Below, one piece after another: positions 33,175 through 44,327 of a stretch of 64,000 nt of DNA (the first letter of the stretch is position 1; each line of letters begins with the position of its first letter). Source of the stretch: Cryomorpha ignava (GTDB lineage Bacteria > Bacteroidota > Bacteroidia > Flavobacteriales_F > PHOS-HE28). The notes under the pieces were generated by a model. The model searched no databases, was not told the DNA's origin, and saw only the letters and a list, made by a program, of their open reading frames with translations. The DNA lies in NCBI GenBank assembly GCA_040391235.1, contig JBEBYG010000006.1, positions 52,602 to 116,601 on the forward strand, given 5' to 3'. The position numbers were made by a program, and so were the translations under genes.

Positions 33175-36100
33175 TCACGCCGCCACCGCCAACACCCCCT
33201 CCAGCGCTTCCTTCGCTTGTTTCATGTTCTTCACATCACTCACCGAAAGCCGCAAGGTGCCGGCCTTCTCATACACCTTGAACCTGCGCGGATGCTGTTG
33301 CACTGCACGCAGGATCGCCGTGAAGGTCTCGCTTCCGAAGAAGGGGTGTTTCTGATCGGCGATGAAGGTGCCGATGAGCTTGCCCTGCTTCAGTTTCATC
33401 TTCTCCAGGCCTAAGCGCTCGCCGCTCCAGCGCAGGCGGATCGCCTCCATCAGTTCCTGCACTTGGTCCGGGATGGGGCCGAAGCGGTCCGCGACGGATG
33501 CCCCGAATCTTTCCAGCTCCGCGGCGTCCTTCAAGTTGTCCAACTCACGATAGAGCGCGAGGCGTTCGGCGGTCTCGCTCACGTAGTCGCTGGGGATCAT
33601 CATGCGCAGATCCGTCTCCAGGATGCAGTCATCGGCGCGGTAGCGCGTGGCACCGCGTGCGAGTTGGCGGTCCTCGAAGAGTTCCTTGAAGTGTTCGTCC
33701 TTCAATTCGCGCACGGCTTCCTCCAGGATCTTGTGGTAGGTCTCGAAGCCGATGTCGTTCACGAAACCACTTTGTTCCGCGCCGAGCAAGTCTCCGGCAC
33801 CGCGGATGTCGAGGTCCTTCATGGCGATGTGGATGCCGCTTCCGAGATCGCTGAATTGCTCAATGGCCTGCAGGCGTTTTCGGGATAGGTCCGGCAAGAG
33901 GTGCGGACTGGGTGCGAGGAGATAGGCGAATGCTTTCTTGTTGCTGCGCCCCACGCGGCCGCGCAATTGGTGAAGGTCGCTGAGGCCGAAGTTCTGTGCC
34001 TCGTTCACGATGATGGTGTTGGCGTTCGGGATGTCGAGGCCGTTCTCCACGATGGTGGTGCAGACGAGCACGTCGCTCTCTCCCTCGATAAAGTCCATCA
34101 TCACGGATTCGAGCTTGTGGCCTTCCAGCTGGCCATGGCCCACGCCCACGCGCGCACCGGGCACCAGTTTGCGGATCATGTCCGCCACGAACTCGATGTT
34201 CTTCACTTTGTCATTGATGAAGTAGACCTGTCCGCCGCGCGAGAGTTCGTACTCCATCGCGTCCTTGATCACCACCTCGTCGTAAGGCAGCACGTTGGTC
34301 TGCACGGGATAGCGGTTCGGCGGCGGCGTGCTGATGATGCTGAGGTCGCGCGCGCCCATGAGGCTGAACTGCAACGTGCGCGGGATCGGTGTGGCGGTGA
34401 GCGTGAGCGTGTCCACCGTGGCGCGGATGGTCTTCAACTTGTCCTTCACGTTCACGCCGAACTTCTGCTCCTCGTCGATGATCAACAGGCCGAGGTCCTT
34501 GTACTTCACGTCCTTGCTCACTAAGCGGTGCGTGCCGATGAGGATGTCGATCTTTCCTTCCTTGACATCGGCGAGGATCTGTTTTTGGTCGGCCGCGCTG
34601 CGGAAGCGATTGATGTAGTCCACGCGCACCGGTAGTCCTTTCATACGTTCCGAGAAACTCTTCCAATGCTGGAGCGCGAGGATGGTGGTGGGTACGAGCA
34701 CCGCCACTTGCTTGCTGTCGCATACCGCCTTGAAAGCTGCGCGGATCGCGACCTCGGTCTTGCCGAAACCGACGTCGCCACAGACGAGCCGGTCCATCGG
34801 TACGGGTTTCTCCATGTCCCGCTTTACATCGGCGGTGGCCTTCTCCTGGTCGGGCGTGTCCTCATAGATGAAGCTGGCCTCGAGTTCCATTTGGAGATAA
34901 TTGTCCGGCAGAAAAGCGAAGCCCGGCTTGCTCTTGCGTTGCGCGTAAAGCTTGATCAGGTCGAAGGCAAGTGCCTTCACTTTGGCCTTGGTCTTCTCCT
35001 TCAGGTTCTTCCATGCCGGGCTGCCGAGCTTGCTGATGTTCGGTGCCGCGCCACTTTCCTCGCCGCTGAATTTGCTCACGCGGTGCAGGCTGTGGATGCC
35101 GACATAGAGGATGTCGTTGTCCCGGTACTTCAGGCGGATCGCCTCCTGCATCTGCCCGCCCGCATCGATGGTCTCGAGGCCGCTGAAGATGCCGATGCCA
35201 TGGTCGATGTGTACCACGAGGTCGCCGGGTTTCAGCTGCGTCAGCTCCTTCAGCGTGAGCGCCTGCGAGTTTTTTCGGAATCCTTCCTTCAGCCGGAAAC
35301 GATGGTAACGCTCGAATATCTGGTGGTCGGTGTAGAGCGCGAGTTTCAGCTCGCCGTCGATGAAGCCTTCGTGCAGGTCCAACACCAAGGGCGTGAAGGA
35401 CACCTCGTGCTCCATGTCGCGGAAGATGGAGTAGAGCCGTTCAGTCTGCTTCGCGCCGTTGCACGCGATCAGGTTCTTGAAGCCTGCGTTCTGCTTGTTG
35501 TGCAGGTCGCCGCTGAGGATCTTGAAGTCTTTGGCGAAGGGGGGTTGAGGCTTTTGGCTGAAGTCGATATGGGCCTCGTTGTCAGTTGCCAGTTGTAGGT
35601 TGTCCGGCGTTCTCCGACCGGCTTCCGCCAACCGCCCTGCCACTCCCCAAAACACTTTCCGGAATCCCAACAGTCCCTTTACCAACTCACTATCACTCGC
35701 CAAAAGTTCCTCCGGTTTGGCATGCTTTGATTTCTCCGGAGTCCGCGCATAGACGTCGCTCAACAACTGCAAGGACTTTGCCGCTGTGTCGCTGATCGCT
35801 TTCGGGTCGCTGAGCCAGATCACCGCATCGGCAGGGAGTTGTGCGAAGAAGGTCTGTTGCTCTGCTGCATCCTCATCCTGCAGGTCAGGGACGATGACCG
35901 CTTCGGCGAGGCGCTCCACGCTGAGCTGGTCTTGTGGATCGAAGCGGCGCACGCTCTCCACGGAATCGCCATAAAGCTCGATGCGGTAGGGCTTGTCATT
36001 GCCGTAGCTGAAGATGTCCACGATGCCGCCGCGGATGCTGAATTGCCCTGGCTCGTAAACGAATTCAACTCGCTCAAAGCCGGTCTCGTGCAGCCATTCT

Positions 36101-36609
36101 TCCAAGGTGTCGATCGGCAGTTCCTCGCCCCGCTTGATGGCGAGCGTGTTCTTCTGCATCTTTTCCTTCCCCACTACCAGCGGGACCAAAGCCTCCGGGT
36201 AGGTGACGATGGTGAGCTGCGAAGCATCCTGTGCTTTCTGAAGGGTCATCAGCGTTTCCAGCACTTCCGTGCGGGTTACGCGGTCGCCGTCCTGGTGTCC
36301 TTCTGGATCGTAAGGAGAACGCGAAGGGGCGGGGAAGAACAACATGGCGTTCTTCCGGGAATCCTTTTGATCCTTCGGTTGCAATGCCTCCAGATCGTTC
36401 ATGAAGTACGCCGCCTCCTCCTTGTCGCCGAGGATGAACACATGCGTGCCGCCGCGCTTCTCCCGGATGGCATTGGCGGCAAGCGATCGACCGCTGCCCA
36501 CCAAGCCGCTCACGCGGATGCGCGCATTCGGTGCCGACAGTGCCTCCGCAGCTTGCTTGCTGCGTGGGTCGTTGGCGAAAAGGGAGAGGAGGTCGGAGAG
36601 TGAGGTCAT
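33175..36609 (-). CDS. mfd: Transcription-repair coupling factor Mfd
   Basis: UvrB-homology N-terminus, an RNAP-interaction domain, the superfamily-2 helicase motifs (GDVGFGKTEVA, DEEQKFG) and a TRCF C-terminal domain. The start is set at MTSLSD (ATGA overlap with the upstream gene). The ORF's first 8 codons are not supported. Confidence 0.9.
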   Translation of the reverse strand: MTSLSDLLSLFANDPRSKQAAEALSAPNARIRVSGLVGSGRSLAANAIREKRGGTHVFILGDKEEAAYFMNDLEALQPKDQKDSRKNAMLFFPAPSRSPYDPEGHQDGDRVTRTEVLETLMTLQKAQDASQLTIVTYPEALVPLVVGKEKMQKNTLAIKRGEELPIDTLEEWLHETGFERVEFVYEPGQFSIRGGIVDIFSYGNDKPYRIELYGDSVESVRRFDPQDQLSVERLAEAVIVPDLQDEDAAEQQTFFAQLPADAVIWLSDPKAISDTAAKSLQLLSDVYARTPEKSKHAKPEELLASDSELVKGLLGFRKVFWGVAGRLAEAGRRTPDNLQLATDNEAHIDFSQKPQPPFAKDFKILSGDLHNKQNAGFKNLIACNGAKQTERLYSIFRDMEHEVSFTPLVLDLHEGFIDGELKLALYTDHQIFERYHRFRLKEGFRKNSQALTLKELTQLKPGDLVVHIDHGIGIFSGLETIDAGGQMQEAIRLKYRDNDILYVGIHSLHRVSKFSGEESGAAPNISKLGSPAWKNLKEKTKAKVKALAFDLIKLYAQRKSKPGFAFLPDNYLQMELEASFIYEDTPDQEKATADVKRDMEKPVPMDRLVCGDVGFGKTEVAIRAAFKAVCDSKQVAVLVPTTILALQHWKSFSERMKGLPVRVDYINRFRSAADQKQILADVKEGKIDILIGTHRLVSKDVKYKDLGLLIIDEEQKFGVNVKDKLKTIRATVDTLTLTATPIPRTLQFSLMGARDLSIISTPPPNRYPVQTNVLPYDEVVIKDAMEYELSRGGQVYFINDKVKNIEFVADMIRKLVPGARVGVGHGQLEGHKLESVMMDFIEGESDVLVCTTIVENGLDIPNANTIIVNEAQNFGLSDLHQLRGRVGRSNKKAFAYLLAPSPHLLPDLSRKRLQAIEQFSDLGSGIHIAMKDLDIRGAGDLLGAEQSGFVNDIGFETYHKILEEAVRELKDEHFKELFEDRQLARGATRYRADDCILETDLRMMIPSDYVSETAERLALYRELDNLKDAAELERFGASVADRFGPIPDQVQELMEAIRLRWSGERLGLEKMKLKQGKLIGTFIADQKHPFFGSETFTAILRAVQQHPRRFKVYEKAGTLRLSVSDVKNMKQAKEALEGVLAVAA

Positions 36610-37304
36610 TCCTTGGTGAAGAAGTGATGCCAATTGAGTTCGCGATCGACGGTGAAGAATAGCTGGCGCCCCTTCAATACGAATGGCTGCGAGAAGTCCG
36701 CGTATTTAAACCTGGAATCTTCGTTTGTCCGCGAGTTTGGGTCTATGTGTAAGTGGAGCGTGTCTCCCGAAGTGGACCAGTGTCCATTTGAGTATGTGCC
36801 TCGTGTACATTGATTGAACGAGTAGTCATAGATGCCGTTCCTTTGAAGGACCAGATGAGCGCTGTTGTCCGCGGAATAGCTTCCAATCCAACGTTCGTTC
36901 AATGCCCGGAGAGAGTCCAGACTTATGCGAATGGTGGTATCATTCAGTAGAGTGCACCAGTCGTTTGTTTCCTTGACAGCATCGGAGTTCATTCGAAAAG
37001 TGCGGATAGCCCCATCCTTGAATTTGACTTTGATGATTGATCGAGGTAAGAACTTCCTTAGTTCCTCTTTTCCCGAATTGTTCCATGCGCGAACAAAACG
37101 ATGAAGCATTGGTTGAGAAAGGGGCAGTGAATCGAAGGACATCGCCCGTTGATCCGTCGTGGAATAAAGCAAGATCCCGCTTTCGACCTGAGCAGGGTCG
37201 ATTGCTACTGGACTAAACGCTGCATTAGGCGTCCGGCATCCTTCTGTCCCCAAGAACAGAACTAGGCAAGTGATGTAGAGAATGCTGAATTGGTTCGAAC
37301 CCAT
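36606..37304 (-). CDS. Putative lipoprotein / secreted protein of unknown function, lower GC. Its stop overlaps the mfd start.
   Basis: Signal peptide MGSNQFSILYITCLVLFLGTEGC. No family recognised. GC is about 48% against about 60% in neighbouring genes. Confidence 0.55.
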   Translation of the reverse strand: MGSNQFSILYITCLVLFLGTEGCRTPNAAFSPVAIDPAQVESGILLYSTTDQRAMSFDSLPLSQPMLHRFVRAWNNSGKEELRKFLPRSIIKVKFKDGAIRTFRMNSDAVKETNDWCTLLNDTTIRISLDSLRALNERWIGSYSADNSAHLVLQRNGIYDYSFNQCTRGTYSNGHWSTSGDTLHLHIDPNSRTNEDSRFKYADFSQPFVLKGRQLFFTVDRELNWHHFFTKE

Positions 37305-37389
37305 GAACGCCTAAATGCCCGAAACCCGATACCGGCAATTCCGGGCATCGGGTTCGAGAAGGTGCAAAGGTAACTTGTGGTTTCGTCCC

Positions 37390-37935
37390 TCACTTCTCCT
37401 CCAGCCCCCGCGCCAACTCCATCATCTTCAGCGCTGTATTCCAATTCCGCGCGGTGTTCACCACGCCGATGGCTTGATCGAATTTGGCCGCGAACTTGGA
37501 GGTGCCGAAGCCATGCGGCGTGCGGAGGTACGCCACGTCATTCACGATGATCAAGCCTTCGCCATCCACGGCAACTGCGCGTATCGCTTCTACGGCTTCA
37601 GGCTTTGGAGTAGCGGCCAGAAGCGCAGCATGCAGATGCTTTCCTTCGGTGACTTCCGGAAACGGGTTGTTGTCGATCACTGCCTGCCATTCCGCGGCGG
37701 TGGGAGCGAAGATGGCCTTGTCGAAACCGAAGTGTTTCTTGCACAGCTTGGCCACTTGGGCGATGGTCTTCTCACGCGAAAGCGTGCTGCGCACCAACGC
37801 ATTGCCGCTGTTGATGTAGGTGGTGGCATGGGTGAAGCCCACCGTGGTCAATGCTTCGCGGAGCGGCGCCACGGGCAATTTCGTTGCACCGCCCACACCG
37901 CGGAAGAGGAGGAGGTAGGTAACGGGCTTTGCCAT
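37390..37935 (-). CDS. DUF1697-domain protein
   Basis: The N-terminus YLLLFRGVGGATKLPVAPLREAL and the ~180-aa length match DUF1697. Confidence 0.75.
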   Translation of the reverse strand: MAKPVTYLLLFRGVGGATKLPVAPLREALTTVGFTHATTYINSGNALVRSTLSREKTIAQVAKLCKKHFGFDKAIFAPTAAEWQAVIDNNPFPEVTEGKHLHAALLAATPKPEAVEAIRAVAVDGEGLIIVNDVAYLRTPHGFGTSKFAAKFDQAIGVVNTARNWNTALKMMELARGLEEK

Positions 37936-37970
37936 TTGAGTTGAGCGGTATCCGTTTCCGAAGGACGTGC

Positions 37971-38801
37971 TTACCTATATCGAAAGGTGTCGTAATTCAA
38001 AACTGCCCCCTCTCTTCTCCGCGATTGATTGGTTACCAGTCCGCGGTCATCATAGCCATATGTAATTTCGGAAGAGAACACCGTCTGTGGAAGTCCATTT
38101 CCTAGAAATACTGTTCTTATCGATTGGAGCTGATCGCCGTCATATGAGAATGTTCTAGTTATAGTCGGCACAGGGCATGGGTCAGTAAATTTGTATTCAA
38201 TCTCGAATTGTATTCTGGCGAGTGTGTCCAAATATTGTTCTTTCCTGTATTCAGGGGTGCCATCATAATAGCTAGTGGTTGATTTCGTTTTCGGAAGCCC
38301 TGTTGGATAGGATATGATAGAGTCTGCCCTGTACCACCATGACTGATGTGGATTGTGAAGCCTGCCTACTACAGCATGCTCATCTAGGTATGAATAGACG
38401 TGCAGTAGGGTGTCCGTGTCCTTTGTGTTGGTAAGCCTCTCTTCGATCAGGTTTCCGGCGCTGCTGTAGAAGTACTCGGTTAATGCGGTGTCGAGCTTAC
38501 TGGAAATCATGTTCCAGGTCCCAATTTGCATTCGACTCAATAGTCGATTATCTGCATAGGTCCATGTTGTCGCTGAATAAGTTGAGTCATCGACCGTAGG
38601 AAGGTATTCCTGATGGCTTATGCGACCTTCAGGATCAATTCGCCATACTTCAGCACTTTCCATAAAAGTAGAATCGTGAAAGGCCGATCGCACTTCAGTT
38701 ATTCTATGCTTTTTGTAAAGCTCACGTTGATCGATGTATTCAAATTGGGCCAATGATGTTAATGCCCGGAAGACCAACATTATGAACAGAGCTATTCTCA
38801 T
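37971..38801 (-). CDS. Secreted protein with YD/RHS-repeat-like motifs, low GC (~43%)
   Basis: Signal peptide MRIALFIMLVFRALTSLAQ. The motifs TYGYDDRGLVTN, FSYDGDQLQSIRT, YYDGTPEY and TWTYADNRLLS resemble YD-repeat consensus (YDxxGRL[IT]). Confidence 0.55.
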   Translation of the reverse strand: MRIALFIMLVFRALTSLAQFEYIDQRELYKKHRITEVRSAFHDSTFMESAEVWRIDPEGRISHQEYLPTVDDSTYSATTWTYADNRLLSRMQIGTWNMISSKLDTALTEYFYSSAGNLIEERLTNTKDTDTLLHVYSYLDEHAVVGRLHNPHQSWWYRADSIISYPTGLPKTKSTTSYYDGTPEYRKEQYLDTLARIQFEIEYKFTDPCPVPTITRTFSYDGDQLQSIRTVFLGNGLPQTVFSSEITYGYDDRGLVTNQSRRREGAVLNYDTFRYR

Positions 38802-38832
38802 TGGGACAATGCAATCATTAGTGGCTAACGCT

Positions 38833-39246
38833 CTATAGTTGTTGAACCTGTTCCAAGAACTTCTGCTCGATGCGATACCCTTCGTCGCGGTATTTGAACA
38901 GTCCGCTTGCGCCTTTTTTGAAACGGAGCCTCTTCGACCAGATTGCGAAGAGGAGTAGAGGACAGTAGCCGTCGTAAGAGATACTGCCCTCGTCTGCCAT
39001 CACTTCGAACACGATTAGTGCGCCACCGGTGGTTTCCTTGTAGTAGGTGTCGTGGTTGGGGCGCTCGATCAACTTGAAGACAATTGTTTCACCCGTATTA
39101 AAGCTGCTCAGCCGCAGCTTGCCTTTTTCGAAAGCTGCGGTGGAGAAGCCTTGCGCGCTGAACCAGCGTGCTATTGCCGAACGCTGTTGAGTAGCTGGTC
39201 GAGAGGATGTGGTGAATTGGATCCGAGGCATGGTCGCAGATGCCAA
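38833..39246 (-). CDS. Hypothetical protein of unknown function
   Basis: 137-aa ORF with no signal peptide, located between the YD-like gene and the BNR T9SS gene. Only ORF-level support. Confidence 0.4.
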   Translation of the reverse strand: MASATMPRIQFTTSSRPATQQRSAIARWFSAQGFSTAAFEKGKLRLSSFNTGETIVFKLIERPNHDTYYKETTGGALIVFEVMADEGSISYDGYCPLLLFAIWSKRLRFKKGASGLFKYRDEGYRIEQKFLEQVQQL

Positions 39247-39268
39247 GGTAAGATCACTTCGGGTCGAA

Positions 39269-41509
39269 CTAATCCTTCACCAAACGCAGCGTCTCCACTT
39301 TGTTCGTCGTGGCGATTTGCACAAGGTAGACTCCGGACTTCAGGCCAGATATATCCAAGATGTTGCTGGTGCCGGAAAGCACTTCCTGCCGCACAATGCG
39401 TCCTTGCACATCGGTGAGCGTGAGCGTGGCAGGTGCATTGTCCAAGCGTTCGATGTGGACCCTTTCACTTACCGGATTGGGGACCAAGCGCGTGGTTCCG
39501 CTTTCCATGGAAGCTATGCCGGTATGGATCACTTGGAAGGGTGCGGAAGTGGCCGAAACACAACCCAGCGCATCGGTTACGACTACGGTGTAAGCCCCTT
39601 CTTCCGTGGCTTCGATGCAGGGTGTGTTGCCTACCGGAAGCGGATCGCCATTGTGATACCACTGCGCGTTCCCGGTGGTGTTCGTGCAGAGTGTTTCGCC
39701 GCTGGAGGTGATGAGCGGGATGGCCGCGATGCTCGGGCAGGCCACACGAGCGCGGTAGATGTCTCCCCAGCGGCCCACGGCGATGATGACGCCATCCACG
39801 ATGGTGGCATCGCCGATCTGTGCGTTGACAATATTCGGTAGGATGGGGCTCCAGTTGATGCCGCCATCGGTGCTGCGTTCGGTCTGCCCGCCGGAGCTTA
39901 CGGCGTAGCCCGTGTCGGGGTCGGTGAAGAAGATGCTTCGGGTGCTTAGTGATGTGCCGCCCATTTGGATCCAGGTGTCGCCGCCGTCGATGGTGCGGTA
40001 GATCCGAGTCCAGCCCAGGCTATCGTTGAGGAAGAAGATGGTGTGGCCACCGCTGGTGCCGGTCATTGCCTGCCAGGTAAGCCCGCCGTCCATGGTGCGG
40101 TAGTCGTCGCCGTATTCGCCAACGGCATAGCCCTGTTGGTTGTTGACGAACCAGAGGTCGCTGATGGTGATGTTGCCTACATCGAGGACGCGTGTCCAGG
40201 TGGCACCGGCGTTGGTGCTGCGGTAGATGCCGCCGTACACCGCGCCGCCGCCCACGAGGTAGGTGTTGGCATCCAAGGTCCATGTGCAGCGGATGGCCAC
40301 GGTGGGGCCGTTGGCGTTGTTGCGTGTGGCGAAGCCGTCGGTGGTGCGGGCGAAGGCGCCGTTGCTTCCGCCCAAGCATCCGTCGCCGCTCGCGATAAGA
40401 TGTACGCCCAGGCCGCCGTTTCCGGCGTTTACCCATGTGCGCCCCCCGTCGGTGGTGCGCAACAGGCCGTTTTCAAAGCCACCGGCGGTCAGGCTGCCCA
40501 CGGCCACGCCGACCAGGTCATTCTGGAAAGACACTTTGTTGAGCACGGTGTGGTAGGTGCCCATGCGCAGTAGTTGCCACGTCGCGCCAAAGTCCACGGT
40601 GCCATAGATGCGGCCATCGGTACCGGTGAAGCCCACGCCTTCCGGGCTCAGCGTAATGCTCTGGTGCAGGGTGGTGCCTGTGCCTACCGTCTGTGCTGCC
40701 CATGTGGCCCCGGCATCGGTGCTGCGCAGGATGCTTCCACCGTTGCCGGCGGCGAGCATCACGTTCCCTTGCTTGGTGAGCCCGAGCAAGGTTTGCGTGA
40801 CGCCGGAGCTGACCGGCACCCACGTGTCACCGCCATCCGCTGTGCGCAGGATGTTGCCGCTGTTGCCCACCACCACGCCGGTGAGCGCATCGCTGAAGTG
40901 GAGCATACGCGAGCCGATCGGTACCGCCGCCGCAGTGGGCTGCCAAGTGAGGCCACCATCGTTGCTGCGGATCACGCCCACGCCGTATGCACAGGCATAG
41001 GCAATATCCGCCGAGGGCATGGAAAGTTCGGTGATGGAGTAGCTGCTGCCGATGCCACTAGTGGTAAGTGTCCAGCTGTCGCCACCATCGGTGCTACGGT
41101 AGATGCGGCCGGCATCGGTGCCGATAAGCCCCAGGGTATTGTTGGCGAACGCGACGCTGCGCAACGTGCCGTACGCACCCGTGCTGGTGGTGTAGTTCTC
41201 GAAGCCGTCCGTGCTGCGGTAGATACTTCCACTTCCGCCCACCACGATGCCGCGCTGTTCATCCCACATGTGCAGCGCATTCGGCGTGTTCACCGAGAGC
41301 TGGTTCATGCGTTCCCATGTGTGGCCACCATCGCGGGTGCGCAGGATCGCGGGTACGGCATTGTTGTCCAGCGCATAGCCAAGGGTGGCGTTCATCATCT
41401 GCACAGCGGGGAATTTGCTGCGCGACTTGATGGCCGTGGTGAGCTCCCATTGCTGGGCGTGAATAGCGGTAAATGAGGCGAAGAGCGCGAGGGTAAGGGC
41501 TTTTTTCAT
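39269..41509 (-). CDS. T9SS type-A sorting-domain protein with multiple BNR/Ycf48-like repeats (beta-propeller)
   Basis: Signal peptide. More than 10 copies of xRSTDGGxTW-type motifs. The C-terminus LVPNPVSERVHIE...LSGTSNILDISGLKSGVYLVQIATTNKVETLRLVKD is a canonical type-A CTD. Confidence 0.85.
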   Translation of the reverse strand: MKKALTLALFASFTAIHAQQWELTTAIKSRSKFPAVQMMNATLGYALDNNAVPAILRTRDGGHTWERMNQLSVNTPNALHMWDEQRGIVVGGSGSIYRSTDGFENYTTSTGAYGTLRSVAFANNTLGLIGTDAGRIYRSTDGGDSWTLTTSGIGSSYSITELSMPSADIAYACAYGVGVIRSNDGGLTWQPTAAAVPIGSRMLHFSDALTGVVVGNSGNILRTADGGDTWVPVSSGVTQTLLGLTKQGNVMLAAGNGGSILRSTDAGATWAAQTVGTGTTLHQSITLSPEGVGFTGTDGRIYGTVDFGATWQLLRMGTYHTVLNKVSFQNDLVGVAVGSLTAGGFENGLLRTTDGGRTWVNAGNGGLGVHLIASGDGCLGGSNGAFARTTDGFATRNNANGPTVAIRCTWTLDANTYLVGGGAVYGGIYRSTNAGATWTRVLDVGNITISDLWFVNNQQGYAVGEYGDDYRTMDGGLTWQAMTGTSGGHTIFFLNDSLGWTRIYRTIDGGDTWIQMGGTSLSTRSIFFTDPDTGYAVSSGGQTERSTDGGINWSPILPNIVNAQIGDATIVDGVIIAVGRWGDIYRARVACPSIAAIPLITSSGETLCTNTTGNAQWYHNGDPLPVGNTPCIEATEEGAYTVVVTDALGCVSATSAPFQVIHTGIASMESGTTRLVPNPVSERVHIERLDNAPATLTLTDVQGRIVRQEVLSGTSNILDISGLKSGVYLVQIATTNKVETLRLVKD

Positions 41510-41608
41510 GCAGATGCCAAAGATGGTTCGAAGCGCGGTACAGCTATGTAGGGGAAAGGTTCATCGCGATCTTCGGGCCAGAACGAAGCACGGGTAGCTT
41601 CGCACCAG

Positions 41609-42043
41609 ATGTTACGTGCACTCTCACTCCTCTTCCTCGGGTTGTTCGTCTCGTTGGGCATTTGCTGTGCACAATCCCACCGCATCGACAGCCTCCACGT
41701 GTTCAAGAAGCTGCCGCCAGGGAAGTACACTTCGGCTACCGCGAACGCGATGGCTTGGAAGCTGGAACGCGAGCATGCACCCTACACCGTGGTGAAAGGG
41801 CAACAGATGAACACCGCTGGAGAAGCCTTCAAAAGCTATGCACCTACTCGACACATTTTCCGAGAGCTACCGGGCTTGCAGCATTTGGCCATGGGCTGGT
41901 CCGGTGGAAGGCCCTTTACGCTCGGCGTGGCGGATGACCTGGACCTGGTGATCAACTTCACGGCACGGACCGAGTACCGGATTTCCGGGATGACGGACCG
42001 CATTCGGGTGCGGGCATTGATCGCGCGGATGATGGTGGAGTAG
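41609..42043 (+). CDS. Hypothetical secreted protein
   Basis: Signal peptide MLRALSLLFLGLFVSLGICCAQ. No family recognised. Confidence 0.4.
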   Translation: MLRALSLLFLGLFVSLGICCAQSHRIDSLHVFKKLPPGKYTSATANAMAWKLEREHAPYTVVKGQQMNTAGEAFKSYAPTRHIFRELPGLQHLAMGWSGGRPFTLGVADDLDLVINFTARTEYRISGMTDRIRVRALIARMMVE

Positions 42044-42103
42044 GGGTTTGGCGCTGCAAGCTCGGCGCATTGGCCCAGAGCCTTCGCTCAGGCTTTTCAT
42101 CAA

Positions 42104-42156
42104 GAATTGAAAAGCGGATCGAGCTTTTATACTTTCTGTCGAATTAATTGAAAAGC
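42104..42156. promoter_or_regulatory. Two direct 12-bp near-repeats (GAATTGAAAAGC / TAATTGAAAAGC) spaced 41 bp apart, upstream of the tonB-like gene
   Basis: Read directly from the sequence. A TAnnTTTC-like -7 element (TACTTTCT) lies between them. Confidence 0.35.
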
Positions 42157-42226
42157 CTTCCCAAGTGCCGCCGTTCGAGGCTGTAACCACGGTGGGACTC
42201 ACGACCTACACGCCTACCTTGCCACC

Positions 42227-42673
42227 ATGCGCTTGCCCATCCTTCCCATGGCCTGCCTGCTTTCCATAGCGGCCCTTGCACAAGAAGTGCCCGATCATAT
42301 TGAGCCGGACACCGAGGTGCCGTTCGAAGCGCTCCCACCCGATACGCTCAGCACATTCACTTCAGTGGAACGGAACGCAGAGTTCCCCGGTGGCTTTTCG
42401 GCCATGATCGCCTATCTGGGGAAGCACATCCAGTACCCGGCTCAGGAGGTAGAGGACCGCATCGAAGGCAAGGTCGTCCTGCAGTTCGTGGTGCGGCGCG
42501 ATGGCTCGGTGGATGATGTCCAAGTATTGCGCGGAGTGCCGGGTGGTAGAGGCTTGGAGCGTGAAGCCGTCCGCGTGGTGAAGACCATGCCCCTTTGGGC
42601 ACCGGCAATGAATAACGGCGTGGCGGTGAACTCATGGGTTACCGTGCCGGTCATGTTCAAGCTGACGAAGTAG
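42227..42673 (+). CDS. TonB-family energy-transducer protein (short form with C-terminal TonB domain)
   Basis: N-terminal hydrophobic anchor. The C-terminus EGKVVLQFVVRRDGSVDDVQVLRGVPGG...EAVRVVKTMPLWAPA...VPVMFKL matches the TonB C-terminal domain. Confidence 0.7.
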   Translation: MRLPILPMACLLSIAALAQEVPDHIEPDTEVPFEALPPDTLSTFTSVERNAEFPGGFSAMIAYLGKHIQYPAQEVEDRIEGKVVLQFVVRRDGSVDDVQVLRGVPGGRGLEREAVRVVKTMPLWAPAMNNGVAVNSWVTVPVMFKLTK

Positions 42674-42780
42674 GCGGAAGGTGGAGCGCTGTTCCTAAGG
42701 AAGCGAGGGCTTCTTGGATCGGGCTATGGCGCTATAAGCGCCTATCTCGCCCGCATCGCGGTGCAAGCGCTGGCGGCACA

Positions 42781-43752
42781 TCACCCCTTCATCACCTCTT
42801 CCACCATCGCCGAGCTGCCGATGAACAAGGGGCAACGCTGGTGCAGTTCCGTGGGCTGAAGGTCCAGGATCCGGGTGGCGCCGTCGGTCGCGCTGCCGCC
42901 GGCTTGCTCGATGATCATGGCCAAGGGGTTGGCTTCGTAGAGCAGACGCAGTTTTCCGTTCGGCTTTTCGGTGGTGCCGGGGTACATGTAGATGCCGCCC
43001 TTCAGCAGGTTGCGGTGGAAATCCGCCACGAGGCTGCCGATATAGCGCGCGCTCATCTTCTTCCTTTTGCAGCCATCGATGTAGTTGCGCACCTTCTCCG
43101 GGAACTGGAAGTAGTTGCCTTCGTTCACGGAGTAGATGCTGCCGTTCTGTGGCACCTGCATGTTCGGATGGCTCAGGCAGAACACGCCGATGCTGGGATC
43201 CAGCGTGAAACCGTTGACGCCGTTGCCCGTGGTGTATACGAGCATGGTGCTGCTGCCATAGACCACATAGCCCGCCGCCACTTGCTGGTTGCCGGGTTGC
43301 AGGAAATCGTCCAACGTCACTTTCTCCGGGTCCAACCGACGGTAGATGGAGAAGATGGTGCCGATGGAAACGTTCACGTCGATGTTGCTGGAGCCATCAA
43401 GCGGGTCCATGGCCACCACGTATTTACCGTCCAACGAAGCGGGGTTATCGAAGACGATGTGTTCATCCTCTTCTTCGCTTGCCACGGCGCAAACAGCACC
43501 CTGATTGCGCATCGCGTTGATGAAGTGATTGTTGGCATAGACATCCAGCTTCTGCTGTTGCTCGCCTTGGATGTTGTGCGCGTTGGCTTCGCCGAGGATC
43601 TCGGTCACCAAGCCGGCCTTGTTCACTTCCCGGTTCACCAGCTTGGCGGCCAAGCGGATGGAGGTGAGCAATTGCGAGAGGTCGCCCGTGGCGAAAGGGA
43701 AATCCTTTTCGCGTTCGATAATGAATTCCGAGAGGGTGGTGATGTTGGCCAT
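42781..43752 (-). CDS. fbp: Fructose-1,6-bisphosphatase class 1
   Basis: Motifs [23 protein letters not shown] and GYVVYGSST. The start is at the internal MANITT. Confidence 0.9.
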
Positions 43753-43838
43753 TTCGATCAGATGATCAGATGATTTGATGATCGGATGATGATCATCTTC
43801 AGCACTGATCCGTTGCAAATATCGGCTGTGCGCGATCT

Positions 43839-44327
43839 TTGGGCACCATGGAGATCACGATCCGCAAGGCGGAAGCCCGCGATGTGCCGCAAATGCTGGC
43901 GTTGGTGAAGGAGCTCGCAGTTTTCGAGAAGGAGCCGGAAGCGGTGACAGTTACCGAGGAACACATGCGCGATGCGGGCTTCGGGCCGGATCCGGTCTGG
44001 TGGGGATGGGTGGCTGAAGGATCAGACAAGGGCATTGTTGGCATCGCGATGTGCTACGAGCGCTATTCCACTTGGCGTGGACGTGCGGGTTATTTGGAGG
44101 ATATCGTGGTGACGGAGCAGGCACGCGGCCATGGCATTGGTGAACGCTTGTTCAAGGCCTGTGCTGCGGAAGCGGTGAAGCGGGATTACCACCACATGAC
44201 CTGGCAGGTGCTGGATTGGAACGAAGGTGCCATCCGTTTCTACAAACGTTTGGGCGCCGAGTTGGACCCGCAATGGGTGAACGGTCGCTTGGACAAGGCG
44301 CAGCTCAGTAAACTCGCAGCGCAATGA
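43839..44327 (+). CDS. GNAT-family N-acetyltransferase
   Basis: Acetyl-CoA binding motif [12 protein letters not shown]. 162 aa. Confidence 0.75.

Follow-up and report, generated by a model that had tools for sequence, protein, structure and literature searches.

Overlapping stop and start codons of the form ATGA give tight termination-reinitiation coupling in bacteria (PMC6728339), and the products of coupled gene pairs are often subunits of the same complex (PMC10666635). In Bacteroidota, initiation is not based on Shine-Dalgarno sequences, and the -7 promoter motif has been defined as TAnnTTTG (PMC6847099). RHS/YD proteins (PF05593; TIGR01643; PDB 8h8a) consist of tandem hairpin-sized units with Y-x-Y-D/N-x-x-G-x-L motifs. 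DUF4595 (PF15283) is a family of small YD-like Bacteroides lipoproteins with a 'porin-like fold'; it co-occurs with RHS_repeat annotations (PMC6079546) and has been proposed as a T6SS immunity protein (T6SS, type VI secretion system; PMC11854122). Here we compare these systems with a locus in a stretch of 64,000 nucleotides (nt) of Cryomorpha ignava (assembly GCA_040391235.1, contig JBEBYG010000006.1, positions 52,602 to 116,601), which we call the window. Between mfd, the gene for the transcription-repair coupling factor, and a gene for a BNR/Sortilin-repeat protein with a C-terminal sorting domain of the type IX secretion system (T9SS) lie four minus-strand open reading frames (ORFs), found where a reading of the window from its sequence alone (the sequence-only reading) had placed them. 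Two of the four, encoding a predicted lipoprotein of 232 amino acids (aa) and a secreted repeat protein of 276 aa, have a low content of guanine plus cytosine (GC). The sequence-only reading had taken the region for one islet. Our comparison makes it likely that the locus combines an old lipoprotein-mfd unit with a later horizontal gain of the 276-aa gene, on a conserved backbone.

Relatives of the locus were collected by an Mfd scan of species-representative genomes, in which the close matches were all metagenome-assembled genomes (MAGs) of Flavobacteriales. Individual loci are given as L numbers. The Mfd of L002, L013 and L001 is 93%, 89% and 73% identical to that of the window, respectively. 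Homologues of the lipoprotein, 49-57% identical to the window copy, precede mfd in five loci; L083 was recovered by the first search, and L088-L091 (53-57%) by a profile search. All five share the junction caccaaggaATGAcctc between the lipoprotein gene and mfd, and the ATGA overlap is common to six lineages. The overlap had been noticed in the sequence-only reading and is borne out by direct reading. Because homologues keep the same Mfd start, the ATG within the overlap can be taken as the start of mfd; Mfd begins with MTSL, as MTSL(S/P)DLL, in all lineages that carry the lipoprotein gene.

The upstream neighbours of the five lipoprotein-mfd loci are all different, namely an Rce1-like gene, a BNR/T9SS gene, a DUF7793 gene, a 125-aa ORF and the tail of a toxin-like gene. 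The last of these (L083:3-92) ends ...KVYLLTIYDKSDQASLSAKGFQALVDSVG and resembles, by eye, a RelE/ParE-type toxin tail. In L089 (6450-9626; GCA_016721685.1, JADKHP010000026.1), mfd is split into many short ORFs with fragments of UvrB_inter, CarD_TRCF_RID and TRCF, and the lipoprotein gene has a truncated 5' end. These breaks most likely reflect a frameshift-rich assembly rather than real pseudogenes.

The region ahead of the lipoprotein gene is conserved as well. The lipoprotein ATG is preceded, 61 nt upstream, by TACCTTTG, which matches TAnnTTTG; the counterparts of this box in relatives read TAGCTTTG, TAGCTTCG or TAACTTTG. The leader also contains a stem-loop, for which RNAalifold gave 16 pairs, two of them with compensatory changes, and for which the single-sequence fold had a z-score of -3.0. 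In L013 and L002, the same leader sits directly before mfd. In every relative, a TAnnTTTG box is followed by a stem-loop some 40 nt long and by CAUUUU, ahead of the lipoprotein-mfd pair or of mfd alone, whatever the upstream gene. We infer promoter function for TACCTTTG, and the stem-loop could be a regulatory or attenuator element in the 5' untranslated region of mfd. It had no match in Rfam, which gave no match anywhere across 36400-39500. A scan for sigma-70 type promoters, with a consensus unsuited to Bacteroidota, found none, and a terminator scan found a single terminator-like site, located on the plus strand inside orf132 and hence on the wrong strand.

A tree of the Mfd N-terminus groups the window with L013 and L002 (85-91% identity, with L013 at 91%). 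L088-L091 form a second clade (clade B), with 70-89% identity within the clade and 60-68% to the window. The lipoproteins, 49-57% identical between lineages and 78-88% within clade B, mirror this tree, which fits vertical co-inheritance with mfd. The low GC content of the lipoprotein gene is shared by its homologues: in all six lineages, GC at third codon positions (GC3) is 0.56-0.63 for the lipoprotein genes and 0.75-0.87 for mfd. Synonymous divergence (dS) of the lipoprotein gene is saturated at 2.4 between the window and L083, and the ratio of nonsynonymous to synonymous divergence (dN/dS) for this pair is 0.16. GC3 that stays low despite saturated dS is a stable property of the gene rather than a trace of recent transfer.

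The ATG behind the conserved leader is the first codon of mfd in L013 and L002; in the window and L083, it opens the lipoprotein gene. At this position, mfd of L013 reads ATG AGC TTG ACC, mfd of L002 reads ATG AAT TTG ACC, and the lipoprotein gene of the window reads ATG GGT TCG AAC; the mfd frame of the window resumes at ...AAG GAATG ACC TCA... (that is, ...GGAATGACC). The lipoproteins of clade B start with MNLHQ or MNLQE, while Mfd starts with MNLTTL in L002 and with MSLTSL in L013. The simplest reading, which takes its direction from the phylogenetic distribution, is that the lipoprotein-mfd unit is ancestral and was lost by deletion in L013 and L002. The two genes would then form an old unit, already present before at least three deep lineages separated, from which the lipoprotein gene was cleanly deleted in the two close relatives. 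The MNL- and MSL- of Mfd in L002 and L013 would be the deletion scar, in which the first lipoprotein codons are fused to codon 2 of mfd.

Alternatively, the lipoprotein gene may have inserted recently, in the lineage of the window, at the start of mfd, brought in by homologous recombination from a distant relative with the lipoprotein-mfd unit, with L013 and L002 retaining the ancestral state. The gene is missing in the two nearest relatives and in L001, its GC content is below that of its surroundings, and the junctions fit an insertion after codon 3 of mfd equally well. Against such an insertion, the window lipoprotein is equally distant from all sampled copies, its distance scales with the divergence of Mfd, and its low GC3 recurs in every lineage despite the saturated dS. 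Furthermore, the window has a leader and an Mfd N-terminus of the clade-A type, to which L013 belongs, so that the recombination tracts would have to end exactly at the gene borders. We consider this scenario unlikely.

Several points nevertheless weigh against an ancestral unit followed by loss. The junction sequences on their own fit insertion as well as deletion, and the direction of the event is drawn from a tree of about 200 Mfd residues and nine lineages only. L001 also has no lipoprotein gene, and its Mfd starts with MTNTAS..., without the MNL scar. L013 and L002 may have lost the gene once or twice, and the Mfd N-termini of the outgroups were too variable to polarise gain and loss. Both the promoter and the translational coupling described next are read from sequence alone.

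In the arrangement that we favour, with an ancestral lipoprotein-mfd unit, the lipoprotein gene would begin at the start codon behind the conserved mfd leader and end in the ATGA overlap. This would leave mfd without an initiation region of its own, and ribosomes finishing the lipoprotein ORF would restart at the overlapping AUG by termination-reinitiation. Most likely, the two genes share one transcript and the synthesis of Mfd depends on translation of the lipoprotein ORF. The pair resembles known ATGA-coupled pairs (PMC6728339, PMC10666635) in being co-directional, in its exact ATGA overlap and in a junction that is conserved in six lineages. In contrast to coupled pairs that encode subunits of one complex (PMC10666635), the predicted coupling here joins an exported lipoprotein to a cytoplasmic DNA translocase, for which a physical complex is implausible.

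One may go further and regard the lipoprotein ORF as a long leader ORF that is obligatory for mfd, and at the same time the 276-aa family as a new stand-alone class of mini-YD beta-sheet proteins that are exported and act in binding or immunity. We think this combination improbable. If the first part were true, the promoter, leader hairpin and start codon of mfd would have been taken over by a Sec-targeted ORF of low GC3, the dosage or location of Mfd would be tied to the synthesis of an envelope protein, and the lipoprotein gene could be lost only by near-exact deletion, as in L013 and L002.

The lipoprotein itself has few recognisable relatives. In the alignment, its N-terminus looks like a lipoprotein signal, with a putative lipobox that is canonical in L083 (...ALLGAC|GS, where the bar marks the cleavage site) and reads ...IGGGC|Q in clade B; the lipobox of the window copy is degenerate (...FLGTEGC|R). 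The signal peptides are conserved and the C-terminal FFTKE is invariant. The Lipocalin_4 model (PF13648) matched six of seven family members, all below threshold with a best E value of 0.0075, and matched the window protein with 15 bits (E 0.049; cut-off 22.4). The C-terminal half of the 232-aa protein is thus weakly lipocalin-like, by profile similarity. As in Lipocalin_4 lipoproteins, its N-terminus resembles a lipoprotein signal, and C-terminal residues (about 154-191) match the model. It differs in that this match stays below the gathering score, in that its N-terminal domain has no known relative, and in that its fixed place before mfd is a feature of the 232-aa protein and not of Lipocalin_4. 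The AlphaFold model, built from a two-sequence alignment, had a predicted local distance difference test score (pLDDT) of 42, with values below 40 in the Lipocalin_4-like domain. A Foldseek search of this model against the PDB returned only noise, with no match at E <= 0.001 and TM-scores below 0.2.

The 276-aa gene has a different distribution. It is missing between orf132 and the DUF1697 gene in L013 and L001, where the spacer between these two genes is only 9 bp and 3 bp, respectively. In L081 it occupies the same site as in the window, between the tail of orf132 and the DUF1697 gene, and encodes an orthologue of the same length (276/276 aa) that is 72% identical. L081 is also the closest relative as judged by dS of the DUF1697 gene (0.33, compared with 0.61 for L013 and 0.82 for L002). 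A dN/dS of 0.27 between the window and L081 indicates that the 276-aa gene is functional. Deviant composition together with absence at the same site in close relatives, the mark of an acquired islet, was found for the 276-aa gene. The lipoprotein gene also deviates in composition, but it occupies the same site in deep relatives. The acquisition proposed in the sequence-only reading therefore holds for the 276-aa gene, a lineage-specific insertion, and not for the lipoprotein gene, which stands at the same mfd junction in deeply diverged lineages. The comparison of syntenic mfd loci that it had called for gave the same split: L013 has neither low-GC gene, whereas L083 and L088-L091 have the lipoprotein gene before mfd and L081 has the 276-aa gene.

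Relatives of the 276-aa protein are rare. A word-indexed search returned nothing beyond the protein itself and the orthologue in L081. With phmmer, 19 relatives of 194-301 aa were recovered among 1.84 billion representative proteins, all of 264-301 aa except for one truncated member. A metagenome scan with five close sequences of the family gave a single locus, L092. Named members are hypothetical proteins from Bacteroidales or Bacteroidetes MAGs, and one is called a 'YD repeat-containing protein' (JGI). The fraction of F, Y, M, I, N and K residues (FYMINK) is 0.35-0.49 in these relatives and 0.25 in the window protein. The homologues are found either in contigs with 31-36% GC or in a 26%-GC islet of a host with about 41-45% GC, and the family looks foreign in other hosts too, to judge from its composition there.

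In L095 (2611-4968; GCA_002840935.1, PHDH01000015.1), a family member lies in a three-gene islet of 26% GC with GC3 of 0.17-0.22, among host genes of about 40-45% GC. In L093 (7233-10755; GCA_021738505.1, JAIPBW010000030.1), another member adjoins RhuM, two ORF6N-domain genes and a type III restriction-modification methylase, in what looks like a variable or mobile region. The proteins encoded upstream of the family members in L093 and L095 are unrelated to each other.

We propose that the 276-aa gene was gained horizontally in the ancestor of the window and L081, from a low-GC gene pool of Bacteroidota, and was partly ameliorated thereafter. It would have landed in the tiny spacer of 3-9 bp between orf132 and the DUF1697 gene, and it is probably read through from upstream, as no promoter motif of its own was found. 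Its donor is less certain than its gain, because genes of this family are more AT-rich than their hosts elsewhere as well and the low GC may be partly intrinsic to the family rather than a donor signature. The sequence-only reading had seen no flanking direct repeats; indeed, the flanks of the 276-aa and lipoprotein genes gave only short chance matches, with no notable direct or inverted repeats or target-site duplications. Nor was there a mobility hallmark: the inserted genes matched no phage family and all ORFs from mfd to the BNR gene are accounted for, although tRNA genes were not scanned.

The 276-aa protein has a signal peptide with predicted cleavage at ...SLA|Q, and the signal peptides of its relatives end in ...AQ. 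Only two residues are invariant across the family; one of them is Q19, which fits the Q-rule for signal-peptidase-I substrates of Bacteroidetes (PMC5837995). The YD/RHS-like motifs listed in the sequence-only reading are present as written. YD-like motifs such as WRIDPEGRI, YFYSSAGNL, FSYDGDQL and YGYDDRGL belong to true internal repeats, which run to the C-terminus: in hhalign, residues 45-160 of the family alignment matched residues 175-276 with a probability of 96% (E 2.1e-9).

Profile searches identified these units as YD repeats only faintly and at the level of the family. PF05593 matched four of 21 members, one of them above the cut-off (P0016, 24.7 bits versus 22); TIGR01643 matched three of 21, with a best E value of 0.0088; and the sole PDB match of the family profile was the Rhs-family protein 8h8a (E 0.069). 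DUF4595 matched one of the 21 (E 0.025; 15 bits, cut-off 34.2) and not the window protein. Neither the window protein nor its orthologue in L081 matched Pfam at E <= 10 or NCBIfam at E <= 1, so that the proposed YD-repeat identity does not extend to the window protein itself. The AlphaFold model, again from a two-sequence alignment, consists entirely of beta hairpins at a pLDDT of 32. The low confidence of both models, which confirm neither fold assignment, and the lack of significant RHS/YD similarity for the window protein also count against our interpretation.

With these reservations, the predicted product is exported by Sec and signal peptidase I, and its mature form would start with Gln and carry beta-hairpin repeats of the YD-like type, about eight in number. 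The protein looks like a short series of YD-like hairpins and, judged by profile membership, is not an RHS protein. Shell-forming Rhs/Tc proteins exceed 1000 aa, whereas the 276-aa protein has about eight units; it also lacks a C-terminal toxin, the core and plug regions of Rhs proteins and a PAAR/VgrG or T6SS context, and instead has an N-terminal Sec signal peptide. Members of DUF4595 share with it export, a size of about 200-280 aa, an origin in Bacteroidota and YD-like hairpins. In contrast to these lipoproteins, the window protein has a signal of the signal-peptidase-I type without a lipobox, and the one family match falls well short of the gathering score. The window protein is most likely a binding or scaffold protein with a curved beta-sheet, periplasmic or associated with the outer membrane, and not a toxin.

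This bears on the proposal of a single acquired and domesticated islet, in which a short YD-repeat, toxin-like protein would be accompanied by the lipoprotein and the product of the 137-aa ORF (orf132) as binding or immunity partners. Both low-GC genes are indeed compositional outliers, the 276-aa protein does have YD-like motifs and internal repeats, a few of its family members match the RHS_repeat or YD_repeat_2x models, and one matches DUF4595, the proposed T6SS immunity family (PMC11854122). The supposed partners travel separately, however. In L013 and L001, orf132 accompanies the DUF1697 gene without the 276-aa gene, and the lipoprotein gene accompanies mfd without either of them. The 276-aa family has no conserved partner, its neighbours being unrelated between loci. 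In addition, the 276-aa protein contains no toxin domain and had no credible match in PADLOC or PHROGs, and the 232-aa and 276-aa proteins are unrelated to each other (hhalign probability 0.1%). The small proteins had all been described as secreted, whereas orf132 lacks a signal peptide and is part of the conserved backbone. A single toxin/immunity islet is largely refuted by synteny and we consider it very improbable; two separate single-gene units with distinct distributions flank the DUF1697 gene.

The base composition fits two units as well. In 600-bp windows, only two runs of the entire 64 kb (mean GC 0.572) fall below 50% GC, 36551-37400 and 37801-39300, and they coincide with the 232-aa and 276-aa genes. 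Among 53 greedily chosen ORFs, the 276-aa gene has the lowest GC3 (z = -3.0), and the lipoprotein gene has a z-score of -1.6. Both stand out against the GC3 of 0.74-0.80 of their neighbours. Of the three genes described there as clearly low in GC, these two are; the third, the 137-aa ORF, is only mildly low. The DUF1697 gene between them has normal GC, as described (Table 1). A 379-aa ORF at 42634-43773 on the plus strand, antisense to the gene for fructose-1,6-bisphosphatase (42781-43752, minus strand), also has a low GC3 (0.547); it is almost certainly spurious, the shadow ORF of a gene rich in GC.

AT-rich spacers can be suspected of holding decaying remnants or chance ORFs, and the two low-GC ORFs have no Pfam or NCBIfam family, very few homologues and poor structure predictions. 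Yet both have full-length orthologues of equal length (276/276 aa, and 231-232 aa for the lipoprotein), dN/dS values well below one as given above, and conserved signal peptides, in addition to the invariant lipoprotein C-terminus and the 19 remote relatives of the 276-aa protein with their uniform size. This selection signal already refutes the suspicion, and we regard it as the most improbable of the alternatives.

Table 1. Features of the mfd locus in the window, with base composition where available.
Feature	Position	Strand	GC	GC3	Basis
mfd, transcription-repair coupling factor; start ATG at 36609-36607	33175..36609	-	0.595	0.80	ORF list and relatives at 73-93% identity
ATGA stop/start overlap of lipoprotein gene and mfd	36606..36609	-			direct sequence reading
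Predicted lipoprotein gene, 232 aa	36606..37304	-	0.486	0.558	ORF, composition, homologues
Conserved leader stem-loop	37318..37358	-			alignments with relatives, RNAalifold
TACCTTTG, match to TAnnTTTG	37365..37372	-			pattern search
Box plus stem-loop leader, window	37318-37372	-
Box plus stem-loop leader, relatives	L013:9895-9967; L002:9926-9997; L083:108-177; L088:5932-6003; L091:623-694
DUF1697 gene	37390..37935	-	0.597	0.74	Pfam PF08002, E 2.7e-27
Inserted segment with 276-aa gene, orf132 stop to DUF1697 start	37936..38832	-			junction alignments, ORF maps
Secreted repeat protein gene, 276 aa	37971..38801	-	0.443	0.448	ORF, family alignment, composition
orf132, ATG at 39231; 137-aa ORF of the sequence-only reading if begun at TTG 39246 (38833-39246)	38833..39231	-	0.524-0.527	0.63
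BNR/Sortilin-repeat protein gene, 746 aa, T9SS C-terminal sorting domain	39269..41509	-	0.622	0.78	Pfam and NCBIfam matches

The conserved backbone into which these two unrelated genes for exported proteins would be interleaved, each with its own history, runs from the BNR/T9SS gene through orf132, the DUF1697 gene and the promoter and leader to mfd. L013 has this order without either the 276-aa or the 232-aa gene. In L002, the DUF1697 gene stands immediately before mfd, without a lipoprotein gene. Hence, the DUF1697 gene adjoins mfd in L013 and L002, and it adjoins orf132 in L013, L001 and L081. The orf132 product is 70% identical to the copy in L013 and 51% to that in L001; gene calls in L084-L087 give it 132 aa. 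It had no match in Pfam, NCBIfam, PADLOC or PHROGs. Its conserved core reads GYCPLLLFGIW...FKYRDEG, and this cytoplasmic, unannotated protein is in relatives always encoded 3-9 bp upstream of DUF1697 (L013:8925-9878; L001:5959-6939). To judge from gene order, orf132 and the DUF1697 gene are a conserved pair, and the pairing suggests a two-gene functional unit.

The BNR/T9SS gene is syntenic in L013 and L089. A block of a GNAT acetyltransferase gene, the fructose-1,6-bisphosphatase gene, small genes and the BNR/T9SS gene is shared by the window (39269-44327), L013 (4546-8874) and the distant L089 (1839-5681). The T9SS sorting domain (PF18962 / TIGR04183) was found by Pfam and NCBIfam in the neighbouring 746-aa BNR protein only, and in none of the 232-, 276- and 132-aa proteins. 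On this comparison of gene order, the surroundings of mfd are a stable backbone in which small genes appear to come and go.

Low GC alone would mislead at this locus, as it would point to one recent foreign islet, perhaps of the toxin/immunity type. The comparative loci split it into two cases, in which one low-GC gene appears foreign yet is probably old, with GC3 low despite saturated synonymous sites, and the other is probably a real acquisition. Our current understanding of Mfd or Rhs biology is unchanged by these findings. The 276-aa family is a small, unnamed and rare group of short exported YD-like repeat proteins of Bacteroidota, which may merit a family definition and a structure. The mfd case would be a clean natural example of a gene that takes over the initiation region of a housekeeping gene, and that was probably excised again in close relatives, leaving a scar of two to three codons in Mfd.

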